DNA of 24,000 bases from Erysipelotrichaceae bacterium (GTDB lineage Bacteria > Bacillota_I > Bacilli_A > Erysipelotrichales > Coprobacillaceae): the NCBI GenBank assembly GCA_017633115.1, contig JAGBPZ010000134.1:4852-28851 (forward strand), written 5' to 3'. The translations under genes and the position numbers were made by a program. Positions within the stretch are counted from its first letter, which is position 1. Every line of letters starts with the position of its first letter. Positions 1,891 to 17,975 of the stretch are shown here, in pieces. The notes under the pieces were generated by a model. It was not told where the DNA came from and did no database searches. It saw nothing but the letters and a program-made list of their open reading frames with translations.

Positions 1891-1918
1891 ACTTCGCATA
1901 ATGTATATTATGTAATTT
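1891..1918. other. dif: dif, the XerC/XerD chromosome dimer resolution site: ACTTCGCATAA-TGTATA-TTATGTAATTT
   Basis: The layout is 11-bp arm, 6-bp spacer, 11-bp arm. It has 22/28 identity to E. coli dif GGTGCGCATAATGTATATTATGTTAAAT, with the central TGTATA and inner arm bases GCATAA / TTATGT identical. It also has 22/28 identity to B. subtilis dif ACTTCCTAGAATATATATTATGTAAACT. Both reference sequences are recalled from memory. 26/28 positions match one or the other. It is intergenic, at a convergent gene-orientation switch. Confidence 0.8.
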
Positions 1919-2304: not shown

Positions 2305-2335
2305 ATAATAAAAAGAATGTTGATCAACATTCTTT
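2305..2335 (-). terminator. Rho-independent terminator closing the dinB-xerD-deoB-small ORF transcription unit
   Basis: Perfect 24-nt palindrome AAAGAATGTTGATCAACATTCTTT (2312-2335): 10-bp stem with GATC loop. On the minus strand it runs into TTTTTATTAT. It overlaps the TAA stop of the 90-aa ORF. Confidence 0.75.
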
Positions 2336-2606
2336 AAATATGAGTACTTATAAGATAAAACGTAATAAATGCTTCAAAAAGAATAATCAAACCCATAAGG
2401 TAAAGATTAATGTTTTGCTTGCTTTTTTTATTGCTGGCTCTTAAGGCTAAAAATGCTGCAACAAATAACAAAGTTGCTATTAGATAATACATCAAATCAA
2501 CAATGAAAGCGTGATTAGAAATGGTAATACCAAATAGGAATAACATCCATCCAAGCAGTACTCCTGCTAAGGATACCAAAACAACACGTCTAATTTCGTT
2601 TTCCAT
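2334..2606 (-). CDS. Small hypothetical membrane protein (90 aa, about 3 TM helices)
   Basis: Three hydrophobic stretches (VVLVSLAGVLLGWMLFLFGI, LMYYLIATLLFVAAFLAL, LYLMGLIILFEAFITFYLI). Its start ATG overlaps the deoB stop as TAATG, suggesting translational coupling. No recognisable family. Confidence 0.55.
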   Translation of the reverse strand: MENEIRRVVLVSLAGVLLGWMLFLFGITISNHAFIVDLMYYLIATLLFVAAFLALRASNKKSKQNINLYLMGLIILFEAFITFYLISTHI

Positions 2607-3805
2607 TAATCAACCCTGCCTAACTGATTAAGAATGGATTCACCAATACCTGGATTATTGACGTTAAAGTTTTCAGCAACTGTTGCACCTATCACACCAT
2701 AGCTTTCTAATAATCCCAGGTACTTAGGATGTGCAAGAGATTTGCTATAGATTAGTAATGGAACATGTTCTCTTGTATGATCTGTACCTGTCCATGTTGG
2801 ATCATTGCCATGATCTGCCGTAATCATTAATAAGTCATCTTCGTTCATACCAGCCATAAATGCATCTAGTTGAGAATCAAATGCTTCAATTGCATCACCA
2901 TAACCAATTGGATTGCGACGATGACCATATACTGCATCAAAATCAACTAAGTTGACAAAACATAGACCTGTGAAATCTTTTTTCAAGAGTTCGATAGTTT
3001 TATTCATGCCATCTTCATTAGATTTTGTTAATGTCGAATTTGTAATCCCCTTGTTTACAAATATGTCAGAGATCTTACCAACCGCTTCTACCTCTAAACC
3101 ATTTTCTTTAAGAACATCCATAACAGTTGTACCAAAAGGTTCTAAAGCATAGTCGTGTCGGTTTGCTGTTCTTTGGAAATGACCTTTACTTGTTCCGATA
3201 TATGGACGAGCGATAACGCGCCCTACTTTCCATTCGTCTCTCATCAAAAGTTCTCTGGCAATATGGCATGCTTCATAGAGTTCTTCTAAAGGAATCACAT
3301 CTTCATGGGCAGCAATCTGAAATACAGAGTCAGCTGATGTATAAACGATCCAGTCACCAGTTTGCATCTGATGTTCACCCCAGTCGTCAAGTATTTTGGT
3401 CCCACTTTCTGCATAATTGGCAACACATTTTCTGCCTGTTTTTTCTTCGAACAATTTGATGAATTCTTCTGGGAAACCTGTATCAGTAAATGTTTTAAAA
3501 GGTTTTGTAATTTTTAAGCCCATCATTTCCCAATGACCTGTCATCGTGTCTTTACCGCTTGAGACTTCTCTTAAAGCAGCTACACTTCCTAATGGATATT
3601 TAACAGGAGGAATGCCTTTAAAATCACCTAAAAGACCAAGTCCGATGCCTTCCATGTTTTCAACGTTCAGCCCGTTTTTAGCTTCACAAATATGGGCTAT
3701 TGTATTAGAACCTTCATCACCAAATTCTTTTGCATCTTCAGCGTTACCGATACCCATAGAATCACATACGATCACAAATATTCTTTTATATAAATAATCA
3801 GACAT
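2606..3805 (-). CDS. deoB: Phosphopentomutase
   Basis: 399 aa. N-terminus KRIFVIVCDSMGIG, GKDTMTGHWEMMG and ITADHGNDPT motifs are typical of alkaline-phosphatase-superfamily DeoB. SD AAGGAG lies 8 nt upstream, inside the xerD 3' end. Confidence 0.95.
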   Translation of the reverse strand: MSDYLYKRIFVIVCDSMGIGNAEDAKEFGDEGSNTIAHICEAKNGLNVENMEGIGLGLLGDFKGIPPVKYPLGSVAALREVSSGKDTMTGHWEMMGLKITKPFKTFTDTGFPEEFIKLFEEKTGRKCVANYAESGTKILDDWGEHQMQTGDWIVYTSADSVFQIAAHEDVIPLEELYEACHIARELLMRDEWKVGRVIARPYIGTSKGHFQRTANRHDYALEPFGTTVMDVLKENGLEVEAVGKISDIFVNKGITNSTLTKSNEDGMNKTIELLKKDFTGLCFVNLVDFDAVYGHRRNPIGYGDAIEAFDSQLDAFMAGMNEDDLLMITADHGNDPTWTGTDHTREHVPLLIYSKSLAHPKYLGLLESYGVIGATVAENFNVNNPGIGESILNQLGRVD

Positions 3806-3810
3806 AAGTA

Positions 3811-4692
3811 CTACTCCTTTTTTCTATTACCTGGATGAAACTGTTGATAGTCATTAAAAATCTTTTGGTTTGATACATGTGTATAAATCGTTGTTGTTGA
3901 GATATCACTATGACCAAGCAATTCCTGTATGGAACGTAAGTCTGCGTCATTGTTCAACATAGTTGTGGCAAACGTATGACGCAGCATATGTGGTGTCACT
4001 TTTTTGACACCTGCCACTTGACCAATATGACGTAAAATACCATAAAAGTTTTCCCTTGATATAGGTTGACCTTTCTTTGTCATAAAGAGCCATTGACTTG
4101 ATTGAACATTAAGTTCTTTACGTTCGTTATACATATAACCCTTCAAGATATCACATGTCGTATCGTCTATTGGAATCAATCTTTCTTTGTTTCCTTTACC
4201 AATGACATGTAGCATTTTTGCTCTTAAATTGACGTCATTTGTAGTTAAATTAACGAGTTCACTTACACGTATACCTGTTGCCATTAATAAGAGAATCATT
4301 GCATAATTACGGACATCGACTGGTTCATCGCCAAGTGTTTTCAGCATTTTTGCGATATCATTCATTGTGAGAACATCTGGTAAATGCTGAGGCAACTTTG
4401 GTAAGTCAAAGTTTTCCATGATGTTTTGGTCAACAATATCATCTTTACGCAAATAAAGAAAAAGCTGTCTTAACGCAACAATTTTGCGTTGTCTCGATCT
4501 TGGTGCATAATCTCTAATCGCAAGTAAATAAGATTGAATATGATCCTTTGTTAAATCATTCACATCATTAACTTGAACAATATTTGCAAAATCAATCAAA
4601 TCACGTAAATAGCCTTCTACGGTATGATCGGATAAGCCTTTTTCAAGTTTTAAGTAGATTTTAAATTCTTTTAATGCTTCAACCATCTTCAT
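3811..4692 (-). CDS. xerD: Tyrosine site-specific recombinase XerD (XerC/XerD family)
   Basis: 293 aa. N-terminal SAM-like domain (YLKLEKGLSDHTVEGYLRDL). Catalytic region GIRVSELVNL ... HMLRHTFATTML ... LLGHSDISTTTIYTHV with the terminal Tyr. xerD-deoB adjacency matches B. subtilis ripX-drm. XerD versus XerC cannot be proven from sequence alone. Confidence 0.85.
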   Translation of the reverse strand: MKMVEALKEFKIYLKLEKGLSDHTVEGYLRDLIDFANIVQVNDVNDLTKDHIQSYLLAIRDYAPRSRQRKIVALRQLFLYLRKDDIVDQNIMENFDLPKLPQHLPDVLTMNDIAKMLKTLGDEPVDVRNYAMILLLMATGIRVSELVNLTTNDVNLRAKMLHVIGKGNKERLIPIDDTTCDILKGYMYNERKELNVQSSQWLFMTKKGQPISRENFYGILRHIGQVAGVKKVTPHMLRHTFATTMLNNDADLRSIQELLGHSDISTTTIYTHVSNQKIFNDYQQFHPGNRKKE

Positions 4693-4738: not shown

Positions 4739-5914
4739 CTATGATTTTACTTGGTCTTTGTTTTTCAACAAATCACTTGCGTGTTTAAGTACATCTTTAT
4801 GTTCATCAACTATTTTTTCGATTTCATTATTGGGATCTTGGACATGTTTATCAAAGATTGTTGTTTGAATATAAACCTGATTTCTAGGCATCACTTTATT
4901 CATTGTTAAACCTATTAGTCTGATTGGTTCATTATTATAAGATTCTCTCAGCAGCATTAAAGCATAAGCATATAAGATTTCTTCCTGATCTGTATAATTG
5001 TTCATAATCATCGATCTTTGAATTGTGTGAAAAGTGTTGTCACGTAAAGTAATCGATATATTTTTTGAAATCAGATTACGAGCTTTAGCGCGTTTAGAGA
5101 CGCTATGAGCAAGTTTTTTGAACTCTTGAGATAAAAGCTCCTCCCCTACTATATCGCGCTCAAATGTATGCGAATTACCAACAGATTTAGGATCATACGG
5201 TTGATAATCGACATCACGCATATCACGTCCATTTGCACGATTATAATAAATAAGTGCTGAACTGCCTAATATAGTTTTAAGTGTTTGATAGTTATTGCCA
5301 TTAGCGATATCACCAATGGTCAATATACCTGCTTCCTTGAGTTTTGGCGCTGTCTTTTTACCAATACCATGCATGTCATCAACTGGCATTGGCCATAAGA
5401 CATCTTTAATATTATTTTTTGTAATAATCGTAATACCCATTGGCTTTTTAAGATCAGAAGCCATTTTACTAAGAAATTTATTTGGTGATATACCGATTGA
5501 ACAGCTAATACCTATTTCACTGAAGACGGACTTTTGTATTTCATCAGCTATGACATAAGGCTGAATTTGTCTTTCCTCAATATAGTTACTCATATCCACA
5601 TAACATTCATCAATACTAGCTTTTTCTACATAAGGACTATAGCGTTTGACAATATTGAAGAATTTTTGGGAAAGACTACGATAATACTCAAAATCCGGTC
5701 GTACGATAATCAAATGGCGGCATAACTTTTTAGCCTGCATGATTGGCATGGCAGAATGAATCCCATATTGACGTGCTTCATAAGATGCAGTTGCACACAC
5801 ACTACGAGGCGCATCATGACCAACGACTACTGGTTTACCTTTATATTCGGGATGTCGTAATAACTCAGCGCTTACAAAGAAAGCGTTCAAGTCAATATGG
5901 AATATAACCTTCAT
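4739..5914 (-). CDS. dinB: DNA polymerase IV (Y-family translesion polymerase)
   Basis: 391 aa. N-terminus MKVIFHIDLNAFFVSAE, SIDECYVDM, and GIGKKTAPKL helix-hairpin-helix are characteristic of DinB. SD GAGGT lies 7 nt upstream. Confidence 0.9.
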   Translation of the reverse strand: MKVIFHIDLNAFFVSAELLRHPEYKGKPVVVGHDAPRSVCATASYEARQYGIHSAMPIMQAKKLCRHLIIVRPDFEYYRSLSQKFFNIVKRYSPYVEKASIDECYVDMSNYIEERQIQPYVIADEIQKSVFSEIGISCSIGISPNKFLSKMASDLKKPMGITIITKNNIKDVLWPMPVDDMHGIGKKTAPKLKEAGILTIGDIANGNNYQTLKTILGSSALIYYNRANGRDMRDVDYQPYDPKSVGNSHTFERDIVGEELLSQEFKKLAHSVSKRAKARNLISKNISITLRDNTFHTIQRSMIMNNYTDQEEILYAYALMLLRESYNNEPIRLIGLTMNKVMPRNQVYIQTTIFDKHVQDPNNEIEKIVDEHKDVLKHASDLLKNKDQVKS

Positions 5915-14333: not shown

Positions 14334-15317
14334 ATGGACGATTTATTTGAATCACTGATTGATTATGCCATCAATCATGATGCCACAGATATCCATATGA
14401 CTCTTAAGCAACAACTTATTATCAATATGCGTATCTTTGGACAAGTCAAACATTATTTAGATTTTGATTATACGACAGGTTCAAGACTTCTTAATTATCT
14501 CAAATTCAAAAGCGCTATCAATATCAATTATAAGCTTATGCCGCAAACTGGTGCCTTTCATTTTCAACATAATGAACATACATACTTTTTACGCCTTTCC
14601 TTTCTCCCTGGTCAGGATTTTGAAAGTATTGTCATCCGTATTCTTAACAATCATCAATCTTTATCCATAGATGACCTATCCCCTATTAAGACATTTACCC
14701 GTTTTATTCGCCAAATTGCTTCATTGTCTTCTGGTTTGTTCCTGGTTTCAGGAGCAACTGGCTCAGGTAAATCAACAACACTTTATGCCATGATCGATTA
14801 TATTATTGCTCAAGGCGGGCGTCATATTGTCACACTAGAAGATCCTATTGAAATGGTCAAAGATGGATGCCTGCAAATAGAAATGAATGATGCGATGGGT
14901 ATCAGTTATGAAACAACCCTAAGACAAATTTTACGTCATGATCCAGACGTTATTATGATTGGTGAAATTCGTGATGAAAGAACCGCAGCACTTGCCATTA
15001 CCTGTGCTTTAACTGGACATTTGGTTTTATCAACAATTCACGCATCCAATACTCATCTTGTTATCAAACGTTTACTTAATTTAGGTGTTAAATCAACTGA
15101 CTTACAGGATGTATTAGTCGGCATCGCATCGCAAAAAATCATTTATGATCATAAGCAGCACAAAATCATTATTTTGCCTGAAATGATGATTAAAGAAACA
15201 ATCAATGCCATCTTATGTGAGGAAAAACCTAAAGTTGTCAATACATTTAGTATCAATGCCCGTTATCTGGTTGCTAAAGGTTATATCAGTCAGGCATTAG
15301 TTAAGGGGTTATTATGA
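14334..15317 (+). CDS. comGA: Competence pseudopilus assembly ATPase ComGA (GspE/PilB family)
   Basis: 327 aa. Walker A SGATGSGKSTT, Asp box/Walker B DPDVIMIGEIRD, His box GHLVLSTIHA. SD AGGAGG 7 nt upstream. Confidence 0.9.
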   Translation: MDDLFESLIDYAINHDATDIHMTLKQQLIINMRIFGQVKHYLDFDYTTGSRLLNYLKFKSAININYKLMPQTGAFHFQHNEHTYFLRLSFLPGQDFESIVIRILNNHQSLSIDDLSPIKTFTRFIRQIASLSSGLFLVSGATGSGKSTTLYAMIDYIIAQGGRHIVTLEDPIEMVKDGCLQIEMNDAMGISYETTLRQILRHDPDVIMIGEIRDERTAALAITCALTGHLVLSTIHASNTHLVIKRLLNLGVKSTDLQDVLVGIASQKIIYDHKQHKIIILPEMMIKETINAILCEEKPKVVNTFSINARYLVAKGYISQALVKGLL

Positions 15318-16309
15318 AAGATACTCTGTTTTTAGAAAACTGTTATATTCTTCTTTCTCAAGGATATAGTGTTGAGGACACTCTACTGCTATGTGAAGAA
15401 ATCACCCATCATAAAGCATGTAGAGAGATTCTTAATAAAGTCTCTAATGGTCAGGATTTCTCACAAGCCTTACTAGAAGCGGATATTTCTCACTTATTTA
15501 AAGAATTTTATGGTTTCTTTGCACTTAAACTCAACCTATCAGAAGCTATTAAGAATGCCTTGTCAATCACCAAACTATTAGATGGTCATCGGCAAAGATT
15601 GATTAAAGAATTATCGTACCCTTTAATTCTTTTACTATTCATGTTGATTTTTTCTTTATTTTCAACCATCGTACTTTTCCCTCGAGTCAATCAATTGTTT
15701 TCATCTTTTGGAATTGAACTGTCGTTAGTGGTCAAGATTGCCTTCTTTTTTATCCGTATTATCCCTATTATCGTTATATTGATTAGTTTCATTATTATAG
15801 CCATATGTTTTTCAATCATGCGTGCACTGCATTATCACCAGTTTCAGTTGTTTGAACGTTATCTTCATATACCTGCAGCTAAATGGTGTATTCAAAAATA
15901 TTTCACCCTTAAGTTTTCGATTTATTTTAATGAACTGATCAAAGATGATCTTGATGCCAACGCCATTATTACTTTGCTTAATGAGAAAATGATGGATAGC
16001 GATTTAAAGATGATTGTTTATGAAATTTATCGCCTGATCATTGAAGGACATGCATTCATCGATATCTTGAAAGATTTTCCTTATATAGATCCAATGTTTA
16101 CTTCAATGTATATGATGTATATTAATCACCCTGACGAAATCAATGCTCTCGATAGCTATATCGATATTTGTTACAGTCAGATCAATCACTTGATAAATCG
16201 TATCATCAAGATCATTACTCCTTCTGTTTACGCTTTTGTTTCCGTGTCAGTTATTACAGTTTATTTAGGTATTATTTTACCGCTCATGAATATTATTAAT
16301 GATCTTTAG
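15314..16309 (+). CDS. comGB: Competence pseudopilus platform protein ComGB (GspF/PilC family)
   Basis: 331 aa polytopic membrane protein with two GspF-like repeats. Start overlaps the comGA stop (ATGA). Gene order comGA-comGB-pilins. Confidence 0.85.
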   Translation: MKDTLFLENCYILLSQGYSVEDTLLLCEEITHHKACREILNKVSNGQDFSQALLEADISHLFKEFYGFFALKLNLSEAIKNALSITKLLDGHRQRLIKELSYPLILLLFMLIFSLFSTIVLFPRVNQLFSSFGIELSLVVKIAFFFIRIIPIIVILISFIIIAICFSIMRALHYHQFQLFERYLHIPAAKWCIQKYFTLKFSIYFNELIKDDLDANAIITLLNEKMMDSDLKMIVYEIYRLIIEGHAFIDILKDFPYIDPMFTSMYMMYINHPDEINALDSYIDICYSQINHLINRIIKIITPSVYAFVSVSVITVYLGIILPLMNIINDL

Positions 16310-16320
16310 GAGGATTTTTT

Positions 16321-16629
16321 ATGAAACAAACACGCAATGGTTTTACTTTAGTAGAAATGGTTTTTTGTGTATCAGTCATACTCGTTATTTTGCTACTAGT
16401 TATTCCAAATGTCACATCTAAAAACAATATGATTAAAGATAAATCTTGTGATGCACAGATTGAAGTTGTCAACTCACAGATTATACTTTATCAAATTGAA
16501 ACTGGTGAACTGCCAACAAGTATTTCACAGCTGACATCTGGATCTAAACCTTATTTGACCAAGAAACAAAGCACGTGTCCAAACGGCAAAAAAATTGAGA
16601 TTAGTGATGGACAAGCCTATGCATCGTAA
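16321..16629 (+). CDS. comGC: Major competence pseudopilin ComGC
   Basis: Class III signal peptide MKQTRNG|FTLVEMVF (G-1, F+1, E+5) plus hydrophobic helix. 102 aa. Two Cys residues (CDAQ..., STCPNG) available for a disulfide. SD AGGAGG. Confidence 0.85.
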   Translation: MKQTRNGFTLVEMVFCVSVILVILLLVIPNVTSKNNMIKDKSCDAQIEVVNSQIILYQIETGELPTSISQLTSGSKPYLTKKQSTCPNGKKIEISDGQAYAS

Positions 16630-17014
16630 TGGTTTTACTCTTATTGAAATGGTCTTTGTCCTATCAATTACACTCATTATGTCTGGTTTTTCTTTTTTGT
16701 TTCACCCCATTCATATCAAGACGAAAAATGAAATAATGCTTGTTTGTCACTGCTTTGATTTAGCACATGCTCACGCGCTCACACAAAAGGAAAAAGTGAT
16801 AATCAAAGTTAATTCGCAATCGATTGATGTTACGAGTAGCCATTATCAAGATCACTTATCACTTGATCGCTCTTACAAGTTTTTAACGCCACATACTTTT
16901 ACTTACAATAAGAATGGTCATATTAAAGGTGCGAAAACGATTCAGTTAAAAACAAACGAAGGCAGTAAACGTTTTGTTTTTCAGGTTGGTTCAGGTATCT
17001 ATTATGTCACATAA
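16607..17014 (+). CDS. comGD: Minor pseudopilin ComGD
   Basis: Prepilin motif HRNG|FTLIEMVF. Possible starts are ATG 16607, ATG 16619, or the ORF-track TTG 16595; all overlap the comGC 3' end. Confidence 0.7.
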   Translation: MDKPMHRNGFTLIEMVFVLSITLIMSGFSFLFHPIHIKTKNEIMLVCHCFDLAHAHALTQKEKVIIKVNSQSIDVTSSHYQDHLSLDRSYKFLTPHTFTYNKNGHIKGAKTIQLKTNEGSKRFVFQVGSGIYYVT

Positions 17015-17204
17015 AGGCGATACGTTAATAGAAGCACTATTTTCATTTAACCTTTATTTGACTGTCATCATCATTTTTATCATGTGCTTTTCAACTTTAA
17101 ACCGTGCTTCTTTACGTTTAGAAAACACAATTACAAAGTCGTACAGTTCGCAATACATCTATTCAGGAGATGAAATCAAATGGATCGAAAAGCTTTTACA
17201 TTAA
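17004..17204 (+). CDS. comGE: Minor pseudopilin ComGE (66 aa)
   Basis: MSHKG|DTLIEALFSF... is a prepilin-like N-terminus with E+5 followed by a TM helix. The ATG at 17004 overlaps the comGD stop by 11 nt. Position in the operon supports the call; the sequence family is poorly conserved. Confidence 0.55.
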   Translation: MSHKGDTLIEALFSFNLYLTVIIIFIMCFSTLNRASLRLENTITKSYSSQYIYSGDEIKWIEKLLH

Positions 17205-17626
17205 TAGAAACACTGTTAGCTTTAAGCATTACGCTCATGATTCTTCTTAATGCTTCTGCTATCATTCATGTATCGAATGTTAGTTATATGCAATACGATG
17301 AAGATATCAGTATTGGTGTTAAGCAATTATCGACTTACTTGATGACATCGCAAAATATCACTTTTGATGATCAGCTTGAATATGACTATAGTGATCATAA
17401 GCACTATACAATTTCAATTAATAATCATCGTTTAGTGAAAGAACCGGGATTTGAAATTTTGATGATGAATATTGACTCGATCAAGTATATTTCTAGGAAT
17501 GATTATCTTTATGCTGTAATCAAAAGAGATAATCACTCTTACCAGTTTCTCTTAACAGACTTATATCGTCTTGATACCAAATCAAGTGATGAAAGTGAGA
17601 AGCCCGAGAATGAAGAAACATCATAG
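17180..17626 (+). CDS. comGF: Minor pseudopilin ComGF
   Basis: MDRKA|FTLIETLLALSITL is a prepilin-like N-terminus with Ala at -1. 148 aa. Overlaps comGE by 25 nt. Confidence 0.65.
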   Translation: MDRKAFTLIETLLALSITLMILLNASAIIHVSNVSYMQYDEDISIGVKQLSTYLMTSQNITFDDQLEYDYSDHKHYTISINNHRLVKEPGFEILMMNIDSIKYISRNDYLYAVIKRDNHSYQFLLTDLYRLDTKSSDESEKPENEETS

Positions 17627-17975
17627 AGGCAGTATTTTACAAATCACGCTGGTCATTATTACAATCATGATGCAAGTATTACTGTCATATTCACTTTATA
17701 TTCAGCAAACAGCGAAATATGATCAAAGCATTATCCTCCTTAATGAGCAGCGTGAGATGGAAATCTATTTTCATCGACATTTATTAAAGACATACGAGGA
17801 TGATATATTACTAAGTGATGCGATTATTGGGGAAAATGGCAGATTGAAATACACTGTGGATGATATGGGTGATTATTATCTTCTCAACATTGAAATAGAT
17901 ACTCAGTTCTATAAATATTCAATAGAAGCAAAGCTTGATTTAGAGGATGGGCATTACAAGAGTTATGAGTATTAA
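17610..17975 (+). CDS. comGG: Minor pseudopilin ComGG
   Basis: MKKHHRGSILQITLVIITIMMQVLL: basic N-terminus plus TM helix without E+5, as in ComGG proteins. It is the last gene of the operon. The ATG at 17610 overlaps comGF by 17 nt. Confidence 0.55.
   Translation: MKKHHRGSILQITLVIITIMMQVLLSYSLYIQQTAKYDQSIILLNEQREMEIYFHRHLLKTYEDDILLSDAIIGENGRLKYTVDDMGDYYLLNIEIDTQFYKYSIEAKLDLEDGHYKSYEY

Follow-up and report, generated by a model that had tools for sequence, protein, structure and literature searches.

A Predicted Chromosomal dif Site Kept beside xerD and deoB in an Uncultured Erysipelotrichaceae Bacterium

Introduction

The element described in this report most closely resembles the dif sites of Escherichia coli and Bacillus subtilis, both of which were experimentally confirmed seed sequences in the work of Kono et al. 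2011 (PMC3025954). The B. subtilis sequence is a 28-bp Firmicute site with an 11-6-11 layout that is served by the two recombinases CodV (XerC) and RipX (XerD). In two other systems, XerS/difSL of Streptococcus and Lactococcus and XerH/difH of Helicobacter and Campylobacter, one recombinase binds both arms of an atypically arranged site as a homotetramer. Finally, the same type of sequence is used by integrative mobile elements exploiting Xer (IMEX), including the CTX, VGJ and TLC phages, the gonococcal island, and gokushoviruses with dif motifs that integrate via the XerC/XerD of their host (PMC7062461). Here, we examine a 24,000-nucleotide stretch of the genome of an Erysipelotrichaceae bacterium (GCA_017633115.1, contig JAGBPZ010000134.1, positions 4,852 to 28,851; hereafter the window), in which an earlier note, made from the sequence alone, had proposed an unannotated dif site at positions 1891–1918. 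Our comparisons make it very probable that this 28-mer is the chromosomal dif site of this uncultured gut-type bacterium.

The identification is an ordinary one. It concerns a well-known kind of site and leaves the known biology of Xer and dif unchanged. The only mildly novel points are an order-wide linkage of xerD, deoB and dif, and a microvirus that carries dif.

Results and Discussion

The predicted dif site occupies 28 bp on the + strand (1891..1918, ACTTCGCATAATGTATATTATGTAATTT), and direct reading of this strand bore out both the 28-mer and its 11-6-11 layout. The left arm (ACTTCGCATAA, 1891..1901, +) is position-for-position homologous to the corresponding arm of E. coli and B. subtilis dif and by this criterion would be the arm that binds XerC (CodV). 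The central hexamer TGTATA (1902..1907, +) is identical to that of E. coli dif in six of six positions and would be the region of strand exchange, while the right arm (TTATGTAATTT, 1908..1918, +) would bind XerD. The inner five bases of both arms form an inverted repeat (CATAA and TTATG), whereas the outer halves are asymmetric (ACTTC on the left, AAATT on the right). This 28-mer occurs only once in the window, whether up to three or up to eight mismatches are allowed.

The site matches E. coli dif at 22 of 28 positions (8/11 in each arm, 6/6 in the centre) and B. subtilis dif also at 22 of 28 (8/11 in the left arm, 9/11 in the right arm, 5/6 in the centre); 26 of 28 positions are shared with one reference or the other. 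These counts reproduce exactly those of the earlier note, which had also judged a match of this quality to be very unlikely by chance. To gauge this claim we scored the best match to the reference dif sites in 300 first-order Markov simulations of 24 kb each. The simulated sequences reached up to 21/28 to either reference and, with spacer-like composition, up to 22/28 to B. subtilis dif. Since the spacer that surrounds the site has a guanine plus cytosine (GC) content of 25% and simulations reach 21–22/28, similarity alone is inconclusive, and the claim about chance was stronger than this comparison allows. The same numbers would suit the notion that the 28-mer is a chance AT-rich imperfect palindrome without function.

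Comparison with related genomes provided a more informative measure. We fetched six loci by way of the nearest XerD homologues (L001, L002, L003, Thomasclavelia L004, Sharpea L005 and Longibaculum L006). L003 is a near-duplicate of L002, and these six loci represent five independent relatives. Their XerD proteins are 46–63% identical to that encoded in the window (L001: 63%, L002: 58%). All six loci contain a recN-dinB-xerD-deoB block followed by a convergent junction, and exactly one dif-like 28-mer with 0–3 mismatches is found at the junction of each, which is also the only such site per 17–21-kb locus. In an alignment with 25-nt flanks, 23 of 28 columns are invariant inside the site compared to 3 of 50 in the flanks, and conservation begins exactly at the first base of the site. 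The left arm is invariant in 11 of 11 columns across the six sites found by synteny, the right arm in 8 of 11, and the central hexamer of the relatives in 4 of 6 (variants: TGCATA and TGTATC). The inner right arm TTATGT is constant save for one T-to-C variant at the boundary of centre and arm. The outer four to five bases of this arm vary, yet remain A/T-rich across the Erysipelotrichales (AATTT, AAATA, AAATT, CATTT, GAATT, AATAT and others).

When the 745-bp spacer of the window was compared with 125 loci by blastn, the dif segment alone matched. Hence the alignment of relatives that the earlier note had suggested as a check gave the anticipated result: one site at every syntenic junction, and this site is the sole conserved island in the spacer. 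Such invariance amid otherwise unalignable DNA is what would be expected of a protein-recognition site under strong constraint. A metagenome scan returned the exact 28-mer in nine further contigs. In contigs L228 and L231 the exact 28-mer adjoins deoB-xerD, with XerD 36% and DeoB about 55% identical to the proteins from the window.

It is because of these comparative data, rather than the match count, that we consider the site to be more than a product of chance. A fortuitous palindrome would hardly recur near-identically at the orthologous position of relatives with unalignable spacers, nor as an exact copy beside deoB-xerD at a XerD identity of 36%, nor would its core appear once per genome, among the matches listed, in DNA of up to 69% GC (see below). 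The conservation data refute this explanation, to which we assign a negligible probability.

The position of the site between converging transcription units and its partly palindromic sequence could also point to a terminator of transcription, to a small RNA, or to an operator that regulates the flanking genes. The predicted fold of this segment is no better than that of shuffled sequences (z = -1.68 and -0.58), no terminator-like site was found there, and a search of Rfam gave no match at the gathering threshold or at E values up to 1. The hairpins at which the flanking genes do end are located elsewhere (1611–1655 and 2312–2335). These genes differ between genomes while the site stays constant, and the same sequence is common to Proteobacteria. 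With neither an Rfam match, nor a significant fold, nor a terminator-like site, we rejected this candidate as extremely improbable.

To determine how widely the core of the site is distributed, we scanned 185,579 species-representative genomes with its first 25 bases (ACTTCGCATAATGNATNTTATGTNA). At least 119 stretches matched, each with one match, all from different assemblies and ranging from 26 to 69% GC. Most of the matches listed are from Gamma- and Betaproteobacteria. The commonest 28-mer among them, ACTTCGCATAATGTATATTATGTTAAAT, occurs in at least 61 genomes and shares 25 of 28 positions with the site in the window; the differences are confined to three outer positions of the right arm. 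About 18 of the matches listed are from low-GC genomes, mostly Erysipelotrichales or Bacilli, including Erysipelothrix, Faecalicoccus and Bulleidia. The left arm, which was fixed by the search pattern, is identical in at least 100 proteobacterial and Erysipelotrichales genomes. On two complete chromosomes the match lies near the midpoint of the sequence (Zobellella: 2.07 of 4.20 Mb, Halomonas: 2.05 of 4.39 Mb). The matches listed include neither the source genome nor that of Thomasclavelia. The earlier note had expected a single copy in the complete genome. One copy per window, per relative locus and per each of the at least 119 genome stretches would fit this expectation, at the scale of windows and loci rather than of the source genome, where the contig measures about 31 kb.

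This distribution also clarifies the apparent mosaic of the arms. As described previously, the outer left arm ACTTC is that of B. subtilis and the inner part is identical to E. coli. However, ACTTCGCATAATGTATATTATGT is frequently found as a dif core among Proteobacteria. Since this core occurs in many genomes, the site is not a chimera of Bacillus and E. coli sequences, and the mosaic reading can be dismissed. To judge from the scan, the site combines a dif core of wide distribution with an outer right arm that is specific to the lineage.

A few occurrences fall outside this pattern. The exact 28-mer is also present at 3476–3503 of L227, a contig of 66% GC, and the 25-nt core was found at 2431–2455 of L065 (binned as Methanosarcina, GC 0.37) and at 197–221 of L074 (binned as Spirochaetia). 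These may be mis-binned contigs or cases of independent convergence on the dif consensus.

We then turned to the recombinase that is encoded 1.9 kb from the site (3811..4692, - strand, 293 amino acids). The best NCBIfam family for this protein is XerD TIGR02225 with 295.8 bits, which is under the cutoff of 329.6; the protein remains under the equivalog cutoffs for both XerD and XerC but scores above the cutoff for the PRK00283 tyrosine recombinase subfamily. It matches the structure of E. coli XerD (1A0P) over its full length (E = 8e-54), and the catalytic R, K, HxxR, H and Y motifs are aligned. Its BLASTP score against E. coli XerD (199 bits, 40% identity) exceeds that against E. coli XerC (153 bits, 33%). 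The XerS model PRK05084 gives 122 bits against a cutoff of 267, and XerH is a distant PDB match (E = 2e-17). Based on these comparisons the gene is best assigned as a XerD orthologue with intact catalytic motifs, and its product is the probable catalytic partner that acts on the right arm.

The proximity of xerD and dif is not peculiar to the window. The two are separated by 1.2–2.9 kb in 13 loci from Erysipelotrichales and related Bacilli (the window, L001, L002/L003, L004–L006, L045, L061, L084, L087, L099, L109 and L115), and the linkage is also seen in metagenome contigs L226, L228 and L231; across the linked loci, XerD identity falls to 33–41%. In the relatives deoB is kept beside xerD and dif. 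The linkage is absent from L049, L067, L120, L033 and L009.

This arrangement raises the question as to whether a XerD-like enzyme could, as a homotetramer, occupy both arms by itself, in the manner of XerS at difSL or XerH at difH. The short distance between gene and site recalls those two systems and contrasts with the general trend, reported by Kono et al. 2011, of xerD genes lying nearer the origin (PMC3025954). Scores under both equivalog cutoffs, the relaxed outer right arm in this lineage and the fact that no XerC was observed in the 24-kb window would all be compatible with a single enzyme. On the other side, the site is a canonical 28-bp 11-6-11 sequence, unlike the atypical layouts of difSL and difH, its left arm equals the XerC arm found in many XerC-encoding Proteobacteria, and the outer halves of its arms are clearly asymmetric. 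The enzyme itself is nearer to XerD than to XerC and far from XerS. XerC and XerD are reported to be widespread and ancient in Firmicutes (PMC8136486), and the lack of XerC from a 24-kb window is uninformative. Taken together, these data make a single-recombinase system unlikely.

We regard it as equally doubtful that the conserved module xerD-deoB-small open reading frame (ORF)-dif is functionally distinct, either as a XerD-only system built from canonical parts or through selection for XerD being made beside its site in the terminus. The pairing of xerD and deoB is presumably ancestral in Bacilli, as the ripX-drm region of B. subtilis would suggest, and the linkage may therefore be a historical accident. 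A canonical dif site next to the gene for one of two presumed recombinases remains our preferred description.

The genes around the site form two opposed blocks. On the left, a gene for a Big_2-domain protein (7–660, +) is followed by one for a YitT-family membrane protein (743–1588, +), which ends where the spacer begins. On the right, a block on the - strand starts with a 90-amino-acid membrane ORF of no assigned function (2334..2606, -), which serves as a landmark between deoB and dif. The next gene, deoB, encodes phosphopentomutase (2606..3805, -; NCBIfam PRK05362, E = 7.6e-166), and we consider it a syntenic landmark rather than a functional part of the system. The block continues with xerD, dinB, recN, tlyA, dxs, ispA, xseB/xseA, nusB, an Asp23-family gene and efp, beyond which lie the comG operon, a penicillin-binding protein gene, lepA and acpS. 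The whole window is chromosomal housekeeping DNA. With + strand genes to the left and a - strand housekeeping block to the right, the site is therefore located in chromosomal DNA at the convergence of two opposed gene blocks.

The small ORF has no Pfam or NCBIfam match. Its product is hydrophobic, and its reading frame overlaps the stop codon of deoB by one base, in a manner that resembles translational coupling. By tblastn, homologues were found in L001 (53% identity) and L002/L003 (42%), and gene calls of 88–90 amino acids occupy the equivalent position in L004 and L006.

The AT-rich spacer between the two blocks measures 745 bp (1589–2333) to about 1 kb and contains no convincing ORF. The location in an ORF-free spacer, as proposed earlier, could be confirmed: the segment 1589–2333 contains no ORF of 60 or more amino acids and gives no protein or Rfam match. 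Repeats in the spacer are limited to AT-rich ones at chance level. A gene relic was also considered and rejected, because the sole tblastx match (E = 0.008) begins at the dif site itself.

The spacer and the genes to its left do raise the possibility that dif is at the same time the junction of DNA acquired there, by way of a Xer-exploiting element, an insertion or a rearrangement, so that the spacer and left genes would be foreign. Synteny with all relatives ends exactly at the site. The Big_2 and YitT genes have no counterpart in the relatives, which carry purF-like, LPG-synthase, DUF815, DUF711, ACT and PTS-IIB genes instead. Furthermore, about 415 bp of unmatched AT-rich DNA (1919–2333) separate dif from the stop of the small ORF, compared to a few to about 90 bp in most relatives. 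Since synteny breaks at dif and this extra DNA is present, an insertion or rearrangement on the left side is possible. A precedent for gene insertion in this region is found in Sharpea, where a DUF3800 gene (L005, 12593–13327) sits between deoB and dif, and a probable Xer-exploiting virus for this dif variant does exist (L212, see below). However, the window contains no second dif-like site, full or degenerate, at up to eight mismatches, with 1.9 kb visible to the left. The left genes are not typical of mobile elements, and no viral or element genes occur within the 24 kb. Comparison of the first 2.6 kb of the window with the ten viral contigs of lowest GC revealed no similarity, and the window as a whole shares nothing but the dif 28-mer with any of 99 viral contigs. 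Rearrangements are frequent around the terminus and do not require a mobile element. We therefore view acquisition of foreign DNA at this dif site as improbable.

The 99 viral contigs were collected in a scan with the left arm and centre of the site. Most of them have high GC contents and divergent right arms after ACTTCGCATAATGTATA, for example ...TGTATAGAAGGTGGGTG. Ten of the high-GC contigs (L141, L146, L147, L148, L150, L156, L160, L173, L180 and L193) contain two direct copies of ACTTCGCATAATGTATA that are 6.2–7.1 kb apart. These look like proteobacterial filamentous prophages at dif, which are a known kind of element.

One of the 99, contig L212 (IMG/VR, 5.2 kb, GC 0.35), is more relevant to the Erysipelotrichaceae. 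It is a microvirus that encodes an F capsid protein, a Chp2-type scaffold, a pilot protein and a Rep protein, and it contains dif-like sites at 4811–4838 (-) and about 5073–5100 (+). In a non-coding region the virus carries ACTTCGCATAATGTATATTATGTAAATA, which is identical to the host dif of relative L001. A degenerate copy in inverted orientation (GTGTTCGCATATGTATATTATGTAATGT), whose left arm has lost 1 nt, is found about 240 bp away; a 66-amino-acid ORF lies between the two. By analogy with the Xer-dependent gokushoviruses mentioned above, L212 is probably a temperate gokushovirus that uses the Xer system of Erysipelotrichaceae. As such it would provide independent, if indirect, evidence for a working Xer substrate in this lineage. 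In another low-GC viral contig (L126, GC 0.355), positions 2734–2761 (-) read ACTTCGCATAATGTATATTGTGCGAAGT, which is palindromic almost throughout, with left-arm-type sequence flanking TGTATA on either side.

A dif site would mark the replication terminus, as the earlier note had stated. Convergent gene arrangement is typical of a replichore boundary in Firmicutes, and the location of the site where opposed gene blocks meet fits the terminus region. On the scale of the chromosome, the site presumably lies there. The word terminus itself is too strict. Since Kono et al. place termination near dif and not strictly at dif (PMC3025954), "terminus region" is the defensible wording.

Two further features of the loci were examined in this regard. 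The first is GC skew. In the window and in the five independent relatives it changes from positive values left of the site to negative values right of it, but this change is confounded by the convergent orientation of the genes. The second concerns motifs that could guide a translocase. The heptamer GAAGAAG is the experimentally defined FtsK-orienting polar sequence (KOPS) of Lactococcus lactis (PMC3384302). Counted over the DNA to the left and right of dif in the window, L001, L002 and L004–L006, it points toward dif 56 times and away from dif 5 times. The same six loci lack the G-rich motifs GAGAAGGG and GGGCAGGG and contain three copies of GGGNAGGG, all oriented toward the site.

No observation contradicts the assignment as dif, but several take weight from its support. 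As to raw similarity, the match to the reference sites is near the upper tail of what AT-rich DNA produces by chance, and only marginally beyond it. Within this lineage, the outer part of the XerD arm varies to an unusual degree. No second recombinase gene was found in the 24-kb window, where XerC/CodV could not be expected. The polarity of GAAGAAG is not decisive, because this motif also encodes Glu-Glu in co-oriented genes. Finally, the genes in minority orientation (window: 14334–17975 (+); L001: 17671–18237; L006: 8863–9768; and similar genes) have a skew that follows their own strand, with a pooled value of +0.06 where a replication-only model would predict a negative value. The local flip in skew is therefore not independent of the convergent arrangement, and we dropped it as independent evidence. 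The predicted sign change was indeed found at the site in six independent loci, but it is inseparable from convergent transcription. In loci of this length, local skew is dominated by transcription and coding bias, which calls for caution when a terminus is to be called.

Despite these points, the identification as a chromosome dimer-resolution site is supported by conservation at the orthologous position, by identity with the dif core and by the adjacent XerD orthologue. The sequence, its 11-6-11 architecture, the sharply bounded conservation, the core identity and the intact recombinase gene are all direct observations. By analogy with E. coli and B. subtilis we infer the assignment of the arms, the XerC partner and the translocase.

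By this analogy, the site may work as follows. Homologous recombination after replication would join sister chromosomes into a dimer, the two dif copies of which would meet at the division septum, where a septal translocase of the FtsK/SpoIIIE family probably positions them. A tetramer of Xer tyrosine recombinases would then bind the 11-bp arms of both copies. In this complex, XerD, encoded 1.9 kb away, would occupy the right arm (TTATGTAATTT), and a XerC/CodV-type partner, presumably encoded elsewhere, would occupy the left arm (ACTTCGCATAA). Strand exchange across the TGTATA hexamer could then restore two monomers.

Annotation pipelines leave dif unmarked, and locating one in an uncultured Erysipelotrichaceae metagenome-assembled genome has practical value. 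The site anchors the terminus region of a fragmentary genome and can be used to orient contigs and replichores. Its position also marks a hotspot open to integration of Xer-exploiting elements, the microvirus L212 among them. In gut Erysipelotrichales, dif can be located by a simple criterion that follows from the comparison: it is the single invariant site downstream of xerD-deoB across the order. A small evolutionary question follows from the same observation, namely, why the recombinase gene stays beside its site.

Comparison with Known Systems

The IMEX attachment sites share the core sequence of the site described here. They differ in context, since the site in the window is a single canonical copy within housekeeping DNA, and the 24 kb contain neither a partner site nor genes of an element. 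With XerS/difSL and XerH/difH the locus shares a recombinase gene that is located near the site throughout the lineage. Unlike in those systems, both site and enzyme are of the canonical XerCD/dif types, and xerD is not immediately adjacent to the site as in XerS/difSL but 1.9 kb away, with deoB and the small ORF in between. The L. lactis KOPS heptamer is polarised toward the site in this lineage (56:5), a likeness that is confounded by coding-strand bias.

In the E. coli system, dif is served by XerC, XerD and FtsK. The segment GCATAATGTATATTATGT is identical in both dif sites, and the two XerD proteins are 40% identical with the catalytic motifs kept. The differences lie in the host phylum and in the outer XerD arm, which is TAAAT in Proteobacteria and AATTT in the window. 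Of the two proteobacterial arms, the one for XerD is better conserved, but in the lineage of the window it is the left arm that does not vary, while the outer right arm drifts. The G-rich KOPS and the SpoIIIE recognition sequence (SRS) octamers are essentially absent from the loci of this lineage.

The B. subtilis system likewise has a 28-bp chromosomal site of a Firmicute with the 11-6-11 layout. The outer left bases ACTTC and the right-arm segment TTATGTAA are identical in the two sites, and the recombinase from the window is orthologous, by sequence, to XerD/RipX. The xerD-deoB neighbourhood also resembles what we take to be the arrangement of the B. subtilis ripX-drm region. On the other hand, the inner left arm and centre read GCATAA-TGTATA in the window, which is the E. 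coli or proteobacterial type, and CTAGAA-TATATA in B. subtilis. The outer three bases of the right arm also differ, and these bases vary within the lineage of the window itself. A further difference from B. subtilis is that the window carries its xerD gene within about 2 kb of dif.

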